Positions 4,596 through 12,222 of a stretch of DNA of 58,895 nt are shown in pieces. Position numbers and translations under genes: made by a program. The DNA lies in the NCBI GenBank assembly GCA_036392095.1, contig DASVYQ010000110.1:1-58895 (forward strand). Reading direction: 5' to 3'. Position 1 is the stretch's first letter, and the number at the start of each line of letters is the position of its first letter. The stretch comes from Patescibacteria group bacterium. Lineage in GTDB: Bacteria > Patescibacteriota > Microgenomatia > Levybacterales > UBA12049. The notes beneath the pieces are model-generated. The model was not told where the DNA came from, did not search any database, and saw nothing but the letters and a program-made list of their open reading frames with translations.

Positions 4596-5768
4596 ATGGA
4601 AAACACACCGCTTAAAAAAAGTAAAAAAAAATTACTTGGACTTATTGTGTTAGGAATTGTTGGTGCATGTATTCTCTCAATACTTCTCGATAGGGTAATG
4701 GGATGGTATTTGCAAAGCAGCAATTACTACGAAGCATTTAATCCAAATTTAAAGTTACTTTTTAATACACTTGAATATACTGCACAAGCACAAATTAACA
4801 GTATTGGTATAAGAAATGCAGAAATTGCATTACCAAAGCCAAACGGCGTGTATAGAATTTTGGCAGTTGGTGATTCCTTTACCTTTGGGTGGGGAGTAAA
4901 TGTACAAGATACCTGGGAAAAGCAGCTTGAAAAATTGTTTGCGGCAAAGGGCAAAAAAGTAGAAATTGTTAATGCAGGTATTCCCGGTTTAGAACTGGAT
5001 TCCTACGAGCAGGCTTGTCTTGCATATTCTCAGAGAGTGCAGGCCGATGCTATTATCGTAGGATTTGATTCAACAGATGATATTAATCAGCGATTAGAAA
5101 TTTACCACAATTTAGAGCAGGAAACTCCATTTTGGAATACGCTCTATCCAACATTTACTCGTTTGCCGCACAAATATATAAGTCCTGTGATTGATGAGTC
5201 ATATTTGCAAAATCACCCCAATGTTATTGATGAAACTCAGGCATGGCAGCAAGAGGCAAGATCATACGAACAAAAAATACCCAGCATATTATTAAATATG
5301 GATCCAAGTTTACGTCAACCATATTGGGATGGAAAAATAAATCCGGCGCAATTCTATTATGCTGCTGTTGATCCAAAGTTTTATGTGCATATTTTAGATC
5401 AAAAATATTTTTCTGAAGGGATGCAATTAATAGGCGCAAAACTTTTAGAATTTAGGCAGACTTGTTCGGGGAATAAGCCTGTCTATGTGGTAAATTTGCC
5501 GTCATCGGAGCTTGTTTCAAAAGATTATTTTGTTTATAAAAAACAAGAAGGGTTTGCTATGGATGATAAAACCGTAACCTTTGATATGGATGCTTCACTT
5601 TCTCAAGAGGTAACAAAGGCAGGGTTTTCGTATATTTCTGCACTTGCAAATTTCCGCTCAGACGGGTGTCCAGACTGTTTTTATAAGTATGACGGACATC
5701 CAACCCCAGTTGGCACAAAACGCATCGCTCAGGTGCTTTTTAATGCTTTACAGAATAGAATAAAATAA
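4596..5768 (+). CDS. Membrane-anchored SGNH/GDSL-type esterase or acyltransferase, paralog 1
   Basis: It has an N-terminal TM helix and block I RILAVGDSFTFGWGV. The C-terminal CPDCFYKYDGHPTPVG has a D-x-H-P block V-like motif. It is paralogous to 5770-6927 and 9012-10178. Confidence 0.7.
   Translation: MENTPLKKSKKKLLGLIVLGIVGACILSILLDRVMGWYLQSSNYYEAFNPNLKLLFNTLEYTAQAQINSIGIRNAEIALPKPNGVYRILAVGDSFTFGWGVNVQDTWEKQLEKLFAAKGKKVEIVNAGIPGLELDSYEQACLAYSQRVQADAIIVGFDSTDDINQRLEIYHNLEQETPFWNTLYPTFTRLPHKYISPVIDESYLQNHPNVIDETQAWQQEARSYEQKIPSILLNMDPSLRQPYWDGKINPAQFYYAAVDPKFYVHILDQKYFSEGMQLIGAKLLEFRQTCSGNKPVYVVNLPSSELVSKDYFVYKKQEGFAMDDKTVTFDMDASLSQEVTKAGFSYISALANFRSDGCPDCFYKYDGHPTPVGTKRIAQVLFNALQNRIK
4848..4900. 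repeat. 53-nt tract identical to 6013-6065
   Basis: GTGTATAGAATTTTGGCAGTTGGTGATTCCTTTACCTTTGGGTGGGGAGTAAA is identical in both paralogs, while the flanking nucleotides differ. Confidence 0.9.
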
Positions 5769-5769
5769 T

Positions 5770-6927
5770 ATGCAAAAGTCTATACCGTTGTGGCGTAAAC
5801 TTTTATTAATTTGTGTAGGACTTTTTTTTGCTTTTTGTCTTGTAACGCTAGTTGATAGATTTTTAAATTGGTATTTAAATACCTCTGGGTATTTTTTACT
5901 GCTTAAGCCAGGGTTGCATGTACTTTCAGATACAAAAGAGTTTACCGTAACAACTGATATTTCTTCTCAAGGATTACGAAATCAAATGGTTCAGATTCCA
6001 AAACCAAATAATGTGTATAGAATTTTGGCAGTTGGTGATTCCTTTACCTTTGGGTGGGGAGTAAAGCTACAGCAAACATGGATAAAACAACTTGAGCAAA
6101 AACTTCATATTCCGGGGAAAAAAATAGAAATTGTTAATGCTGCAGCACCTGGTATGGAACTTGCTGATGAATTACTTGCATGTAAAGCATATGCAGGCAG
6201 AATGCAGGCTGATGCAGTACTTATTGGAGTAAACAGCACAGAAGATTTTGCACAGCGATATTTACAATCAATAAATGAAGGCAATGAAACAATCTGGCAA
6301 AAATTGTGGCCAACACTTTTTCAAATAAATAAACCGATTATTGCAATGGATTGGCTAAAATCGCAGCAGAATTCCGTTGTCACGTCTTCGTATTGGAGTA
6401 ATTTTAGTCCAGCTTTTGCAGAACAAAATCCTACTATAAAACAAAAACTTTCTGCAAATATGCTGCAGCTTTTTTTATATGGGGAAATAAGTCCTTTCCC
6501 TGCAATAACAGCATATTTTTACCCTGATTATTACACCTATGTTTTGCAGCCGCAAATAAGTCAAAAAGCACAAAGTGAATTTGCTCAAAAAATTGCAGAA
6601 ATAAAGCAAGATTGTATAAAAAACAGACCTGCAGCAGCTATGTTTATTCCTTCAGAAGGATTTATTTCACAAGAGGGAGCAGAAGCTATGCAGCTGTCTG
6701 GTTTTACGTGGGATAAAAAATTACTTAACTTTAATTTTGACAATATATTTAAGCCAATGTTTACGAGAGCAGGCATAGAATATATGTCACCTTTACAGGA
6801 TTTTAGAAAAAACGGTTGCCCTGATTGTTTTTATCCAATTGATGAACATCCTACAGCAACAGGAGATGCTCAGCTCGCTAATTATGCATATCCATTTGTT
6901 GAAGATCTAATTTCAAAAAAGAATTAA
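5770..6927 (+). CDS. Membrane-anchored SGNH/GDSL-type esterase or acyltransferase, paralog 2
   Basis: Same architecture as paralog 1: RILAVGDSFTFGWGV and CPDCFYPIDEHPTATG. It starts 2 nt after the stop of paralog 1. Confidence 0.7.
   Translation: MQKSIPLWRKLLLICVGLFFAFCLVTLVDRFLNWYLNTSGYFLLLKPGLHVLSDTKEFTVTTDISSQGLRNQMVQIPKPNNVYRILAVGDSFTFGWGVKLQQTWIKQLEQKLHIPGKKIEIVNAAAPGMELADELLACKAYAGRMQADAVLIGVNSTEDFAQRYLQSINEGNETIWQKLWPTLFQINKPIIAMDWLKSQQNSVVTSSYWSNFSPAFAEQNPTIKQKLSANMLQLFLYGEISPFPAITAYFYPDYYTYVLQPQISQKAQSEFAQKIAEIKQDCIKNRPAAAMFIPSEGFISQEGAEAMQLSGFTWDKKLLNFNFDNIFKPMFTRAGIEYMSPLQDFRKNGCPDCFYPIDEHPTATGDAQLANYAYPFVEDLISKKN
6013..6065. repeat. 53-nt tract identical to 4848-4900
   Basis: See 4848-4900. 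Confidence 0.9.
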
Positions 6928-6969
6928 TTCTTGCAAATCATAGCTTGCTTTTCTACAATTGGCCTACTT

Positions 6970-7158
6970 ATGAAGGTCATAAAGGAATTTTCCGCAAAAA
7001 TTGTAGCTTTCCAAACAAATATTCTTTTAACGCTAGTTTACATAATAATTCTTCCTATAGTTTGGGTTTTATATAAAATTTTTCAAAATAAAAAACAAGA
7101 TGGATGGAGGCGATGGAGTATAAAATCTGATACATTAATAGATATTTTGAAACAATAA
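6970..7158 (+). CDS. Small membrane protein, possibly SxtJ-like
   Basis: An ATG at 6970 gives 62 aa (MKVIKEFSAKIVAFQTNILLTLVYIIILPIVWVLYKIF...); the track ORF starts at a TTG at 6931. Its stop overlaps the carbamoyltransferase ATG (TAATG). The hydrophobic core plus basic tail resembles the C-terminal half of SxtJ-family proteins that travel with carbamoyltransferases. Confidence 0.35.
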   Translation: MKVIKEFSAKIVAFQTNILLTLVYIIILPIVWVLYKIFQNKKQDGWRRWSIKSDTLIDILKQ

Positions 7159-8819
7159 TGTATATTTTAGGAATTTCTTGTTTTTATCATGACAGTGCAG
7201 CGGCATTGCTGAAGAATGGTCAACTTATAGTTGCTTCTGCAGAGGAGAGATTTTCCCGTAAAAAACATGATACGTCGTTTCCAAAACAGGCAATTGCGTT
7301 TTGTTTACAACAAGCTGGTATTCAGGCAAAGGATATAGCATATGTGGTTTTTTATGAAAAACCCTTTGTTAAGTTTGAGAGAAATCTGATTACTTCTTTA
7401 GAGAATTTTCCACATTCGTTGTCTTTTTTTGTTGACTCCATGCGTAATTTTTTGGCAGAGAAGCTTTGGATTAAAAGTGATATTCAATTACTTGGCATTG
7501 ATTCTACAAAAATTCTGTTTGTGCCGCACCATTTGTCTCATGCTGCTGCTTCTTTTTATCCATCACCTTTTTCTAAAGCTGCATATGTAACTTTTGATGG
7601 AGCTGGAGAATGGACGACAACGTCGTGGGGAATTGGAGAAGAGAATAAATTACTTCCCAAAGAAGAAATACGCTTTCCTGATTCTATTGGATTGTTGTAT
7701 GCAACATTTACCTCGTTTTTGGGCTTTCCAATTAATGATGGAGAATATACGGTAATGGGTATGGCTTCTTTTGGTAAGCCAAAGTATCAAAAGAAGATAC
7801 AAAAGCTATACACGCTAAAAAATGACGGAAGCTTTGTGTTGCATAAAAAATATTTTAGCTTCAATAAAAATGCAACTAAGATGCATTCAGATATTTTTGA
7901 AGCAGAATTTTCTGCTTGTAACAAATTTGATTTAGCAGCAAGCCTCCAAGCATGTACAGAGGAAATTATTTTTACTCTTTTACATTATGTACAAGCACAA
8001 ACAAACACAGAAAATCTTTGTTTGGGAGGAGGAGTTGCATTAAATAGTGTAGTTAATGGCAAAATAAGAGCACGAACAAGATTTAAGAATATTTTTATTT
8101 TTCCAGCCAGTGGAGACGACGGTGCTGCTGCTGGAGCGGCTTTGTATGTATATCATCATATTTTGGGAAATACAAAGCGAAAAAATATTGACAATATGTT
8201 TTTAGGGAAAGCATTCTCTCAAAAAGACATAGAATCATTTTTACAATCAAAACAAATTTCATTTACAAAAATTCCAGATAAAAAATTACTGCCATTTTTG
8301 GCAAAACAGCTTTCTTTAGGAAAAGTTGTAGGTTATATTGAAGGAAGAGCAGAATATGGGCCACGGGCACTAGGACATAGATCTATTTTGGCTGACCCTC
8401 GAAAAAAACAAATGAAAGATATAGTAAATAAAAAAATCAAATTTAGAGAAGAATTTAGACCGTTTGCGCCTGCTGTTTTACAAGAAGATGTAAAAAAATA
8501 CTTTGTTGGTGATGATAGATTACTTTATCCATATATGCTTTCTGTTTGTAAAACAACAACAAATGCTTCAAAAGAAATTCCAGCAGTTTTGCATGTAGAT
8601 AAAACAGCAAGAATTCAAACTGTAAACAAAACGTATAAAGGAAAATTCTATAAACTTCTTAAAGAGTTTAAAAAGCAAACAGGAATAGGAGTTTTATTAA
8701 ATACATCTTTTAATTTAAAAGGAGAGCCGATTGTGAATAGTCCACAAGATGCATACAACACATTTCTAAAAAGCGGAATAGACATTCTTGTGCTTGAAAA
8801 TTGTGTTTTACAAAAGTAG
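7158..8819 (+). CDS. NodU/CmcH-family carbamoyltransferase
   Basis: 553 aa. The N-terminus MYILGISCFYHDSAAALLKNGQLIVASAEERFSRKKHD and the C-terminal VLLNTSFNLKGEPIV are characteristic of this family. Confidence 0.9.
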   Translation: MYILGISCFYHDSAAALLKNGQLIVASAEERFSRKKHDTSFPKQAIAFCLQQAGIQAKDIAYVVFYEKPFVKFERNLITSLENFPHSLSFFVDSMRNFLAEKLWIKSDIQLLGIDSTKILFVPHHLSHAAASFYPSPFSKAAYVTFDGAGEWTTTSWGIGEENKLLPKEEIRFPDSIGLLYATFTSFLGFPINDGEYTVMGMASFGKPKYQKKIQKLYTLKNDGSFVLHKKYFSFNKNATKMHSDIFEAEFSACNKFDLAASLQACTEEIIFTLLHYVQAQTNTENLCLGGGVALNSVVNGKIRARTRFKNIFIFPASGDDGAAAGAALYVYHHILGNTKRKNIDNMFLGKAFSQKDIESFLQSKQISFTKIPDKKLLPFLAKQLSLGKVVGYIEGRAEYGPRALGHRSILADPRKKQMKDIVNKKIKFREEFRPFAPAVLQEDVKKYFVGDDRLLYPYMLSVCKTTTNASKEIPAVLHVDKTARIQTVNKTYKGKFYKLLKEFKKQTGIGVLLNTSFNLKGEPIVNSPQDAYNTFLKSGIDILVLENCVLQK

Positions 8820-8828
8820 ACTAGGAGT

Positions 8829-9008
8829 ATGCAATTTATCAAAAAAATCTTTCACAGAATAGGAATTATTACAGAGCTTCTAGGATTTTTTTGGGAAAAT
8901 AAGTTGTGGTGGGGAATTCCGTTTGTTATTGTGTTGCTTGTTATTTCTTTTTTTATTTTCTTTGGACAATCGGCTCCAATAGTACCATTTGTTTATTCAT
9001 TATTTTAA
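8829..9008 (+). CDS. DUF5989 / SxtK-like small membrane protein (not in the ORF track; 59 aa)
   Basis: My translation is MQFIKKIFHRIGIITELLGFFWENKLWWGIPFVIVLLVISFFIFFGQSAPIVPFVYSLF. The K-x-W-W-x-x-P TM helix and the PF-[IV]-Y-[ST]-LF C-terminus match DUF5989. It sits directly downstream of the carbamoyltransferase. Confidence 0.75.
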   Translation: MQFIKKIFHRIGIITELLGFFWENKLWWGIPFVIVLLVISFFIFFGQSAPIVPFVYSLF

Positions 9009-9011
9009 TCT

Positions 9012-10178
9012 ATGGAAGAAACAGTCGGCAAGCGTAAAACATTTATACAAAAGCTTACTCTTATTTTCATTGGCATTGGGTTTGCTTTTTTACTCTCAGT
9101 CGGCGTGGATAGGTTGTTTGGATGGTATTTGCAAAAAATAAATTATTTCACTGCATTTACTCCTGGATTATCTGTCTCTTATGCTACAACTGAGTATGCT
9201 TCAACAGTAAATATAAATAGCCAAGGAATTAGAAACCAAGAAGTTATTATGCCCAAACCTGCTAACACGTATAGAATTTTGGCGGTTGGAGATTCAACAA
9301 CGTTTGGATGGGGTGTTGATCTTAATCAAACATGGGAAAAACAATTAGAAAAACAGCTTAACATTTCTGGAAAAAATGTAGAAATTATTGATGCCGGAGT
9401 TCCTGGCAACAACATTCCTGCTGATTCTCGTGTCTGTCAGGATTATGCTGACAGATTTAATATAGATGCCGTTATTGTAGGTTTTAACGGACTTGATGAT
9501 ACTGTTCAGGGGGAGGCAGAAATAACTCCATTGGTATTTATAGAATCATTTTTATGGCCAAATATTACCAACTATAGATATATTGGTCGTAGTCTTGAAT
9601 CTGTTGATGCAAGACAATCGCAGTTTATAACTACAGAATATTGGTCATTAAAAGCACGAAATTATGCTTTTAATAACCCGGACGTTTTAAAAAATATCAG
9701 TTTACAAGTTAAGGCGCTTTTTTTAACAGGGAAAATACTTCCGGCAGTAGTTTCATATGCTCATGAGGATCCGAATTTTTTTCTTCATATTTTAGATACT
9801 AATTTTTTCCAACAAAGAAAAAATTTGCTAGAGAATATGTTTGCTTCTCTTAAAAAAGATTGTGCTGGAAACAGGCCACTTTTTGTTCTTTTTATTCCTG
9901 ATTCATCCCTCTTGTCTAAGAGTAATTTTGCCTATCGTGAAGAAGAAGGGTTTATTATGGATCAAAAATTAAATACATTTGATTTTGATACTCCTATGAA
10001 ACAAATAGCAAAAAATGTTGGATTTTATTATATTCCAACACTGCCAGACATGAGGAAGATTACTTGTTCAACTTGTTATTTCCATTATGATGGACATCCA
10101 ACGGCAACGGCTGATGCCTATTTTGCCCAGATTGCTGCACCTCAGGTGCAATCTATTTTAGATAGAATTGTCAAATAG
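9012..10178 (+). CDS. Membrane-anchored SGNH/GDSL-type esterase or acyltransferase, paralog 3
   Basis: It has an N-terminal TM helix, RILAVGDSTTFGWGV and CSTCYFHYDGHPTATA. Confidence 0.7.
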   Translation: MEETVGKRKTFIQKLTLIFIGIGFAFLLSVGVDRLFGWYLQKINYFTAFTPGLSVSYATTEYASTVNINSQGIRNQEVIMPKPANTYRILAVGDSTTFGWGVDLNQTWEKQLEKQLNISGKNVEIIDAGVPGNNIPADSRVCQDYADRFNIDAVIVGFNGLDDTVQGEAEITPLVFIESFLWPNITNYRYIGRSLESVDARQSQFITTEYWSLKARNYAFNNPDVLKNISLQVKALFLTGKILPAVVSYAHEDPNFFLHILDTNFFQQRKNLLENMFASLKKDCAGNRPLFVLFIPDSSLLSKSNFAYREEEGFIMDQKLNTFDFDTPMKQIAKNVGFYYIPTLPDMRKITCSTCYFHYDGHPTATADAYFAQIAAPQVQSILDRIVK

Positions 10179-10209: not shown

Positions 10210-10280
10210 GGGCCTATGGTTCAACGGTAGAATACTGCATTCGCATTGCAGTGGTCCGAGTTCAATTCTCGGTAGGTCCA
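10210..10280 (+). tRNA. tRNA-Ala (anticodon CGC)
   Basis: I folded a cloverleaf by hand. The acceptor GGGCCTA/TAGGTCC has a G3:U70 pair. The anticodon stem is CTGCA/TGCAG with loop TTCGCAT. The T arm is CCGAG-TTCAATT-CTCGG. No CCA is encoded. Confidence 0.8.
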
Positions 10281-10320
10281 CTGGCTTGGCTATGTAAATT
10301 TAGGTATAATAATCTCTCAA

Positions 10321-10394
10321 GGGCCCGTAGCTCATTTGGCTAGAGCGTTTCTATGGCATAGAAAAGGTGGTGGGTTCAAATCCCATCGGGTCCA
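10321..10394 (+). tRNA. tRNA-Ala (anticodon GGC)
   Basis: The acceptor GGGCCCG/CGGGTCC has a G3:U70 pair. The D arm is GCTC-ATTTGGCTA-GAGC. The anticodon stem is TTTCT/AGAAA with loop ATGGCAT. The T loop is TTCAAAT. No CCA is encoded. Confidence 0.85.
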
Positions 10395-10449
10395 CACACC
10401 TTCTTCAAGCCTGTTTAAATTATTTTCCAACAAGCTATAATAAACTTGT

Positions 10450-12222
10450 ATGCAAGCAGTTATTAAAAAGCTTGAGAAAATTCCAACAGTTGGCATTGTT
10501 TTTTTCTATATTCTTCTTGGTTTTATTTTGTATGCAGGTTCTTTATTTAGTGCCTTTATGGCAGATGATTTAGAACAGATCGTCAGAAATCCGCTTGTGC
10601 AAACTTTGTCCAATATCCCAAAAGATTTTTTAGCTACGAGTACGTTTAATACCGGTGGAGGACTAAGTCATGGCTTGTATTACAAACCCGTGCTTTTATT
10701 ATTTTTTACAATTTTCTATAACCTTGGCGGAAATGGCTCTTGGTTTTTGCATGTTGTACAGGTCGCAATTCATATTGCCAATGCAATTTTTGTATTTATT
10801 TTACTTAAAAAATTTTTCCCAAAGCTAGGGGCATTGTTAGGCAGTTTTTTGTTTCTGATTCATCCAGTCAATATAGAAACAGTTGTCTATATTTCTAACC
10901 TGCAAGATGTATTATTTTTCTTTTTTGGAATGCTGTCTCTGATTATTTTTCTTTCAAAAAAGTCATATATGTGGCAGGGAGTTGCCCAAGTTTTGCTGTT
11001 ATGCAGTTTACTTTCTAAAGAAACCGGTATTCTATTTTTTGCCGTAATTCCTTTATTACTCTTTTTCTTTGCATCAAAAAAACAAACACTTCAGTTTTTT
11101 CTTGGCATTATTCCAACAATTATTTTGTATGCAGCGCTTCGGTTTGGAGTAGCAGGCATACCAATTGTTAATAAAAGCAATTTTCCGCTCACATCTGTGC
11201 CTTTAGGAATGCGTTTGTTGTACATCCCATATTTGATTCAGTATTATCTAAAAGCATTTTTTTGGCCTTCTGATTTATTTGTTTTTCAATTGTGGGGAAT
11301 AAAAACACTTACATTTACTACATTTTACGGCCCACTTCTGGTAGACAGTATTTTTGTGATACTCGCAGCGCTTATTGGAGTTTTTCTAAAATATAAAAAA
11401 TCTCCATGTACGCTTGCTTTTGTATTCTTTGCTATATGGTTTACTCTTGGCATGTTGTTGCATTTACAAATTGTGCCGCTTGATGCAACAGCTGCAGGAA
11501 GATGGTTTTATTTTCCGGAAGTAGGAATAATCGGCATGCTGTTATGTTTTTTTGCAAGTGTGTCTGTTACAAAAAAAGGAATAAAAACAGCAGGTTTGTA
11601 CGTTATTGCCGTTATTCTTCTTATTCTATTTATTCGTTCTTTTATTCGGGTTTCACAATGGAGTAGTGCCTTAGTGCTGTTTCAAAGAGATTGGAAGGTT
11701 GGTTACAACACTTATACCGGTGATACAAAAGAATTTACTTACTTTAGTCCAATGGAATCTTTATTAGCTGTGGAATTATTAAATAATGGTTTTATAGAAG
11801 AGGCAAAGCAGCACTTTTTGCATGCTGCAATGGTGAGTACAGACAGCTACACAAAAGCAGTCGCATTAAATAATCTTGCAGTAACCTATGAAAAGCTAGG
11901 GGATTATACCAATGCCCAAAAAACATATCAGGAAGAATTGCATATTTCTAATTTTTATATTGGTTACAACAATTATGCAGATTTTTTAACTAGACATGCA
12001 GATGTAAAAGAAGCACAAACATTTATTGTAAAATCGCTTCAGCTTTTTCCAGACAATGCACAGCTATGGTATGACCTTTCAGTTGTAGAAAATGCATTAG
12101 GTAATACTACAGAAGCTCACAATGCATTACAAAAGGCTCTTGCACTTGATAGTACCATTGTCTCTCAAAATCAGAGTATGCAGCTTCCATCAAATGTGCC
12201 TTTATATAATAAAAAACAATGA
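10450..12222 (+). CDS. TMTC-like GT-C membrane glycosyltransferase with C-terminal TPR repeats
   Basis: About 10-12 TM helices. It has the luminal acidic motif FMADDLEQIVRNP and the DUF1736-type motif IHPVNIETVVYISN. The C-terminal TPRs include LNNLAVTYEKLGDYTNAQKTYQE. Confidence 0.75.
   Translation: MQAVIKKLEKIPTVGIVFFYILLGFILYAGSLFSAFMADDLEQIVRNPLVQTLSNIPKDFLATSTFNTGGGLSHGLYYKPVLLLFFTIFYNLGGNGSWFLHVVQVAIHIANAIFVFILLKKFFPKLGALLGSFLFLIHPVNIETVVYISNLQDVLFFFFGMLSLIIFLSKKSYMWQGVAQVLLLCSLLSKETGILFFAVIPLLLFFFASKKQTLQFFLGIIPTIILYAALRFGVAGIPIVNKSNFPLTSVPLGMRLLYIPYLIQYYLKAFFWPSDLFVFQLWGIKTLTFTTFYGPLLVDSIFVILAALIGVFLKYKKSPCTLAFVFFAIWFTLGMLLHLQIVPLDATAAGRWFYFPEVGIIGMLLCFFASVSVTKKGIKTAGLYVIAVILLILFIRSFIRVSQWSSALVLFQRDWKVGYNTYTGDTKEFTYFSPMESLLAVELLNNGFIEEAKQHFLHAAMVSTDSYTKAVALNNLAVTYEKLGDYTNAQKTYQEELHISNFYIGYNNYADFLTRHADVKEAQTFIVKSLQLFPDNAQLWYDLSVVENALGNTTEAHNALQKALALDSTIVSQNQSMQLPSNVPLYNKKQ

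Follow-up and report, generated by a model that had tools for sequence, protein, structure and literature searches.

A cassette of six co-directional genes in a Patescibacteria genome of the order Levybacterales (contig DASVYQ010000110.1 of assembly GCA_036392095.1, of which the whole stretch of 58,895 nucleotides analysed here is called the window) encodes an O-carbamoyltransferase (CT), two small membrane proteins, designated J and K, and three paralogous SGNH proteins (Table 1). We propose, with a probability of about 0.5, that the six genes constitute one four-component system that O-carbamoylates an envelope glycan or glycoconjugate outside the cytoplasm. This proposal is carried by the family memberships of the proteins, the genomic coupling of all four components, natural gene fusions between two of them, a tyrosine-containing motif at the C-terminus of K and the homology of the SGNH proteins to AlgX around a D-x-H motif.

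The coupling of the components was assessed in 80 loci fetched with a CT alignment, 75 of which contained a full CT, and these were scored with hidden Markov models (HMMs) built in this study. The loci come from phyla that include Patescibacteria, Chloroflexota, Planctomycetota, Omnitrophota, Acidobacteriota, Binatia, Aminicenantes and an Aenigmarchaeote. K was found at 57 of the 75 CT loci, J at 56 and both at 44, which bears out an earlier note on this DNA that had described a CT with two small membrane proteins as a widespread association of the sxtI/J/K type. The same note had regarded the SGNH genes as a local addition to this trio, a view that does not survive the comparison: an SGNH gene lies within four genes of the CT on the same strand at 27 of the 75 loci, usually abutting the trio, in the arrangements SGNH-J-CT-K, J-CT-SGNH-K, J-CT-K-SGNH and SGNH-K-J-CT. 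Moreover, SGNH and DUF5989 domains (the family of K) are fused at seven loci, and in saxitoxin clusters, where sxtI, sxtJ, sxtK and sxtL are consecutive, sxtL encodes a GDSL lipase (PMC2679770, PMC2684587). The SGNH protein is thus a regular fourth component of the module. Pfam ALGX was matched by 21 of 32 partner SGNH proteins, and most of the partners carry a GDS motif in their N-terminal part and D-x-H-W-x-x-x-G close to the C-terminal end.

In the seven fusions (loci L039, L057, L063, L073, L083, L093 and L110), an AlgX-like SGNH domain is followed by additional transmembrane helices and then by a DUF5989 domain with the ending PFIYTL[FI]. In six of the seven, hydropathy profiles showed hydrophobic segments in even numbers beyond the SGNH domain, with two in L039 and four in each of the other five, which would place the SGNH domain and the tail on one side of the membrane; the L083 protein showed three segments at the threshold, and one is assumed to have been missed. 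In addition, among 41 related genomes, K (over the Pfam cut-off), an AlgX-like SGNH protein (profile E<=1e-8) and a high-scoring CT (E<=1e-83) all occurred in the identical seven (G000, G003, G017, G025, G027, G036 and G040), in three of which the SGNH gene is not adjacent to the CT gene, lying 18 kb from it or on a different contig. Three more of the 41 genomes contained divergent CTs without K or the SGNH protein. This co-occurrence is suggestive, the relatives being non-independent samples.

K belongs to DUF5989 (PF19451), as the earlier note had claimed, with 4.6e-13 and 49.4 bits against a cut-off of 27 (48.2 bits in another search). It is laid out as 27 residues, a transmembrane stretch of 19 and a tail of 13, with all charges N-terminal. 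Every CT-adjoining DUF5989 protein ends in PF[IVLM]Y[TS][LI]F-COOH, the version in the window being PFVYSLF, and among 81 DUF5989 tails FxYxx[FILM] was found in 76, FxYxxF in 68 and a tyrosine at position -4 in 80. By comparison, an FxYxx[FILM] ending occurred in 5 of 10,073 other open reading frames (ORFs); the other ORFs of the source genome that end in FxYxxF were discarded as antisense or non-membrane chance ORFs. This ending corresponds to the FXYXXF acyl-shuttle motif, in which the tyrosine at the C-terminus of DltX or PatA is acylated on the outer face of the membrane and donates to a serine of DltD or PatB (PMC12148441). DltX of B. thuringiensis has 11 cytoplasmic residues, a transmembrane helix of 22 residues and 15 outside residues ending in FIYNEF (PMC5541007), and K shares with DltX-type proteins, as defined in these studies (PMC12148441, PMC5541007), its small size, its one transmembrane helix and a C-terminal FXYXXF with near-invariant tyrosine. 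A search for the DltX family (Pfam DUF3687) gave no match at E<=10. DltX-type proteins work with an MBOAT partner, and no MBOAT was found in the source genome (95.9% complete). The likeness between K and DltX is one of motif and architecture, short of demonstrated homology, and the FxYxxF tail suggests a testable role for this small partner.

The three SGNH proteins of the window share GDS[FT]TFGWG, and in Pfam searches they matched Lipase_GDSL_2 at block I alone, just under the cut-off. The CxxC and block V motifs quoted in the earlier note were all found (CPDC, CPDC and CSTC; YDGHPT, IDEHPT and YDGHPT). Together with about 30 close relatives they form an AlgX-like D-x-H subfamily that we name SGNH-A. 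In an alignment of 33 SGNH-A sequences, G92-D93-S94 is invariant (33/33), N126, G128, D366 and H368 are kept in at least 90%, and four cysteines, including the CxxC, in 28-29 of the 33. An AlphaFold2 (AF2) model of SGNH-1 from the same 33 sequences (pLDDT, the predicted local distance difference test, 92.8; pTM, the predicted template modelling score, 0.90) consists of a long N-terminal helix (residues 10-41), an SGNH alpha/beta domain and a large helical insert. A Foldseek search with this model returned 60 matches at E<=1e-3, those listed being SGNH esterases, with CgnD of crocagin biosynthesis at the top, followed by TesA and Axe2. Given the conservation and the predicted fold, a Ser94-His368-Asp366 triad, of the kind whose lack the earlier note had named as grounds for refutation, is plausible in SGNH-1. 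Each protein begins with a lysine-rich stretch followed by one N-terminal hydrophobic helix, which, with the conserved cysteines, is consistent with an outward-facing SGNH domain.

Block V in particular differs from the textbook D-x-x-H. D-x-H (D366, H368) was present in 32 of the 33 SGNH-A members, without the D-x-x-H spacing, and the letters D-x-H-P that the earlier note had set against D-x-x-H are confirmed; the block is no degenerate D-x-x-H and corresponds to the catalytic D-x-H-W-T-x-x-G motif of AlgX and AlgJ. A profile of the C-terminal third of the SGNH proteins matched AlgX (4knc, 7ula) at E 1.9e-6 and AlgJ (4o8v) more weakly, with yDgHlTpeG aligned onto gDhHWTPHG of AlgX and D366 and H368 in register with its catalytic D-x-H. 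An HMM built from the ALGX-type partners likewise picked up SGNH-A sequences, with values of 1e-22 to 1e-30; Pfam ALGX (PF16822) itself was not matched by the three window proteins. Unlike in AlgX, where the catalytic serine lies downstream of D-x-H, the serine of the window proteins and of the SGNH partners in general lies upstream, in a classical GDS block. The AlgX/AlgJ-type D-x-H makes it more likely that the SGNH proteins are transferases than esterases. The earlier suggestion of O-carbamoylation combined with O-acylation or de-acylation of an envelope glycan is retained as regards the CT family and the glycan-like neighbours described below, and modified as regards the SGNH proteins.

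By sequence, the CT is a member of the NodU/CmcH/TobZ/GdmN O-carbamoyltransferase family. Both Pfam domains are present over the full length (Carbam_trans_N, 3e-84, 283.8 bits; Carbam_trans_C, 4.7e-70, 235 bits), homology to GdmN (3.6e-87, residues 8-551), TobZ (4e-68) and NovN spans the length of the CT, and the HHLSHAA and GDDG motifs are invariant in the alignment. Enzymes of the GdmN, NovN and TobZ type are soluble and convert carbamoyl phosphate and ATP to carbamoyl-AMP, from which the carbamoyl group passes to a hydroxyl acceptor. TobZ, GdmN, NovN and NodU work singly, their substrates being soluble small molecules or Nod factors, whereas the CT clade described here is locked to two membrane microproteins. 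A plausible source of carbamoyl phosphate is a CarB-like gene, the C-terminal half of which is on contig C30, with a second CPSase_L_D2 match on C164; a carbamate kinase was not found in the source genome. In a separate observation, a CT of the same clade at L089:3971-7213 has a C-terminal fusion to what appears by eye to be a Trm112-like zinc ribbon and a class I S-adenosylmethionine-dependent methyltransferase. This fusion is real; long versions of J, CT or K that looked like fusions at loci of high GC content (L105, L073, L050 and others) were rejected as ORF-calling artefacts.

The likening of J to SxtJ in the earlier note was not borne out by Pfam, since the window protein had no match to Pfam SxtJ (PF19588, gathering cut-off 24.4 bits) even at E<=10. 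Within the J family, 14 of 50 members matched PF19588 at E<=0.01, the best at 1.7e-4 (22.7 bits, under the cut-off), and the matches with coordinates fell inside positions 32-98 of the 99 in the profile (its C-terminal two-thirds), mostly at 50-98. A PF19588 search of five other genomes holding J-like genes gave no match, and a word-based homologue search with the 62-residue J returned only itself. Relatives nevertheless carry, at the equivalent place before the CT, a protein of 66-82 residues that can be aligned to J, and this alignment, in which ATG 6970 is preferred as the start, revealed a common hydrophobic core with a near-invariant tyrosine and a C-terminal tail of the form W...L..L.KQ[YFW]. 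The core comprises about 20 residues with a central P-x-G and positive charge on both flanks. At E<=0.001 a profile of 68 members picked up 8,116 representative proteins, and at E<=1e-10 it still matched 1,225; they fall in length classes of about 72-110 and about 165-190 residues, with the J domain C-terminal in nearly all of the 150 matches listed. J is thus, judging from its sequence, SxtJ-core-like and outside Pfam SxtJ, in a large unnamed family, and it occupies the genomic place of SxtJ as a small membrane protein adjoining a CT and a DUF5989 gene. Members of the long class (about 170 residues) have three added N-terminal hydrophobic segments; throughout the family the extreme C-terminus is conserved as [RK]-Q-[FYWG] and the core tyrosine is kept in at least 90%.

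Taken together, these features are consistent with a carbamoyl relay that follows the plan of the Dlt, Pat and Alg pathways of acylation and operates without an MBOAT or AT3 protein. The cytoplasmic CT would form carbamoyl-AMP from carbamoyl phosphate and ATP, following the chemistry of TobZ- and GdmN-type enzymes, and it would do so at the membrane with J and K, with which it is associated in the genomes. If K behaves as DltX and PatA do, the tyrosine of its outside FxYxxF tail may then bear the carbamoyl group in the form of an aryl carbamate, and the anchored AlgX-like SGNH protein would take it onto its serine (Ser94 in SGNH-1) before passing it to a sugar hydroxyl. The three SGNH paralogs could serve three acceptors or positions.

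Several observations weigh against this relay and have to be set beside the alternatives. The relay contains no conduit resembling an MBOAT or AT3 protein that would account for the passage of the carbamoyl group across the membrane from the CT to an outer tyrosine; the comparison of DUF5989 with DltX by hhalign, although in register, had a probability of 1.1% and an E of 0.048, which is not significant; and an AF2 model of a natural SGNH-K fusion reached a pLDDT of 50-60 in the membrane part, too poor to judge docking of the tail. Moreover, the CT homologues with known substrates modify soluble small molecules directly, and J, from its sequence, may be re-entrant rather than pore-forming. These last two points also fit an account in which J and K only tether the CT, a lipid-linked or nucleotide-activated sugar is carbamoylated at the inner face, and the SGNH proteins, as de-O-acetylases or decarbamoylases, edit the polymer by hydrolysis after its export. 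In favour of this account, CT homologues modify hydroxyl acceptors directly, the sequence of J looks like that of a monotopic or re-entrant protein, SxtL has been proposed as a decarbamoylase (PMC2885083) and the fold matches of SGNH-1 are mostly esterases. We nonetheless consider this account, the main rival, viable but less likely than the relay, as the near-invariant C-terminal FxYxxF on the outer side, the SGNH-DUF5989 fusions that join this tail to an SGNH domain and the AlgX/AlgJ-type D-x-H signature are all left unaccounted for.

The absence of an adjacent SGNH gene at 48 of the 75 loci also counts against a single system, and would suit two unrelated kits, one in which CT, J and K carbamoylate some target and another in which the SGNH proteins act as independent O-acetyl esterases or transferases with a different donor, for example an AT3 protein. 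One AT3 gene does exist elsewhere in the genome, as a stand-alone acyltransferase gene (contig C161 of G000, 9000-9914), and SGNH arrays without a nearby CT occur, as at L028. The AT3 gene, however, is on a separate contig and unlinked to the cassette, and the perfect co-occurrence of K, CT and the SGNH protein in 7 of 41 related genomes, including the non-adjacent cases, together with the natural SGNH-K fusions, makes two kits improbable. Finally, saxitoxin clusters assign the same block to a small-molecule pathway (PMC2679770, PMC2885083, PMC2684587), which would favour tailoring genes for a secreted natural product of the saxitoxin, crocagin or aminoglycoside kind; SGNH-1 finds its best fold match in CgnD, a hydrolase of the crocagin pathway, which likewise uses a carbamoyltransferase. 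We rejected this reading as very improbable on context: the genome is only 1.36 Mb and has no scaffold-forming biosynthetic genes near the cassette, the flanks encode Rho, an M23/LysM peptidase, tRNAs and GT-C membrane enzymes, and GT4, epimerase and sugar-transferase genes recur beside the module elsewhere.

The extracytoplasmic carbamoyl relay can be compared with several known systems. The closest resemblance in gene content is to sxtI-sxtJ-sxtK-sxtL, in which a CT, two short membrane ORFs and a GDSL/SGNH gene are likewise neighbours (PMC2679770, PMC2885083, PMC2684587), a likeness drawn from gene descriptions and Pfam families, K being a member of Pfam DUF5989. SxtJ and SxtK are termed uncharacterised in this literature (PMC2885083). 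Unlike the sxt clusters, the cassette has no surrounding toxin pathway, contains three SGNH paralogs instead of one and the order J-CT-K instead of sxtI-sxtJ-sxtK, and its short J (62 residues) falls under the Pfam SxtJ cut-off. With the Dlt system of teichoic acid D-alanylation (DltA/DltC/DltB/DltX/DltD) it would share a cytoplasmic ATP-dependent activating enzyme, a membrane-anchored SGNH-type transferase on the outside and a microprotein of about 50 residues whose N-terminus is cationic and whose single transmembrane helix leads to an outside tail with the FxYxxF ending (PMC12148441, PMC5541007). In contrast to Dlt, there is neither an MBOAT (DltB) nor a carrier protein, and carbamoyl would replace D-alanyl; K differs from DltX in an added conserved cytoplasmic amphipathic segment and has no detectable homology to it. 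Among the MBOAT-SGNH systems for O-acetylation (AlgI/AlgJ/AlgX, PatA/PatB and WssH/WssI), the D-x-H-W-T-x-x-G of AlgX and AlgJ is borne by the SGNH partners of the CT, and the FxYxxF tail that is fused to the MBOAT in PatA is fused, in some CT partners, to the SGNH domain through extra transmembrane helices. The cassette departs from these systems in that its donor enzyme is a soluble carbamoyltransferase. Specific to the window are the array of three SGNH-A paralogs with D-x-H-P and four cysteines, the short J, the exact K/CT/SGNH co-occurrence and the 53-nt patch described below.

No mention of DUF5989 was found in the literature searched, nor any paper in which a carbamoyltransferase and an SGNH enzyme are connected through a microprotein in the fashion of a tyrosine shuttle. 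The saxitoxin cluster was described in 2008, SxtJ and SxtK have had no assigned function in the years that followed, and their relatives are very common; if the relay is correct, a tyrosine shuttle would explain genes of this type. Carbamoylation would also become one of the few envelope modifications that are carried out extracellularly, the acyl-tyrosine/SGNH logic of Dlt, Pat and Alg could run without an MBOAT or AT3 protein, and Patescibacteria, whose surfaces are almost unstudied, would be predicted to carry carbamoyl groups on surface glycans, the products of the neighbouring GT-C genes being possible sites. More tentatively, and with somewhat less than even confidence, we suggest that CT-J-K-SGNH represents a third class of machinery with which bacteria and archaea modify envelope polymers, one that needs neither MBOAT nor AT3 proteins and proceeds through O-carbamoyl-tyrosine, and that this would be the first function for SxtJ, SxtK and SxtL.

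Table 1. Features of the carbamoyltransferase cassette, in window coordinates
Feature	Position	Strand	Description
SGNH-1	4596-5768	+	ORF; N-terminal membrane anchor and SGNH domain; GDS at residues 92-94, D366-G-H368
SGNH-2	5770-6927	+	ORF; SGNH-1 paralog, 37% identity; catalytic Ser, Asp and His intact; CPDC, IDEHPT
Small membrane protein J	6970 (ATG, 62 aa) or 6931 (TTG, 75 aa) to 7158	+	One hydrophobic segment; resembles SxtJ C-terminal core
Carbamoyltransferase (CT)	7158-8819	+	NodU/CmcH/TobZ/GdmN O-carbamoyltransferase family; Kae1-like N domain and YrdC-like C domain
DUF5989/SxtK-type microprotein K, 59 aa	8829-9008	+	Cationic amphipathic N-terminus, one transmembrane helix, 13-aa tail
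C-terminal hexapeptide of K, F-V-Y-S-L-F-COOH	8988-9005	+	Fits FXYXXF acyl-shuttle motif (DltX, PatA)
SGNH-3	9012-10178	+	ORF; SGNH-1 paralog, 40% identity; catalytic residues intact; CSTC, YDGHPT
53-nt identical tract, copy 1	4848-4900	+	In SGNH-1 block I; encodes VYRILAVGDSFTFGWGV
53-nt identical tract, copy 2	6013-6065	+	In SGNH-2 block I

The gene order, common direction and tight spacing reported previously were confirmed, with successive gaps of 1, 3 (or 42, depending on the start of J), -1 (a TAATG overlap), 9 and 3 nt. SGNH-1 and SGNH-2 are perfectly identical over 53 nt of block I, the genes being 55.6% identical overall, while the longest identical runs in the other two SGNH pairs are 15-16 nt; gene conversion over a short stretch of the catalytic block is the probable origin of the tract. 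Upstream of the cassette lie genes for Rho and an M23/LysM peptidase (Pfam), and two tRNA-Ala genes (10210-10281 and 10321-10395, anticodons CGC and GGC) separate it from the GT-C genes, which begin at 10450. Promoter and terminator scans showed no enrichment. The source assembly is in 186 contigs, the genomes of relatives span 0.6-1.8 Mb, and a profile search found the module once in its own genome. A genome of the same genus (G001, 86% complete) lacks the CT, K and this SGNH type, so that the cassette is accessory, with a patchy distribution.

The envelope-glycan setting proposed in the earlier note is supported by the recurrent neighbours of the module across phyla, which include GT4 glycosyltransferases (13 loci), NAD-dependent epimerases (12 loci) and sugar transferases, and with which a glycan target fits. 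The link that it drew to the GT-C island holds in the window, where these genes adjoin the cassette, and is not a conserved one: large polytopic membrane proteins were encoded within five genes at 8 of 20 loci of the candidate phyla radiation (CPR) type and 17 of 63 others, and in relatives these proteins mostly had no Pfam family, YfhO at L034 alone being assigned. The adjoining GT-C island is thus a local candidate source of the acceptor rather than a conserved partner.

Two further arrangements were noted among the collected loci. A 51-kb contig carries an array of two ALGX-type and two SGNH-A genes (L028:4561-9161) with no CT within 8 kb, and this array adjoins a methyltransferase and sensor kinases. 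In addition, a conserved single-pass protein of 140-231 residues (PTVATVT...QPFF...NGD.VLIY) without a Pfam family, absent from the window, is encoded after DUF5989 or before J in several Patescibacteria-type loci (L029:15599-16021, L030:4526-4984, L029:12741-13436 and L032:2077-2817).

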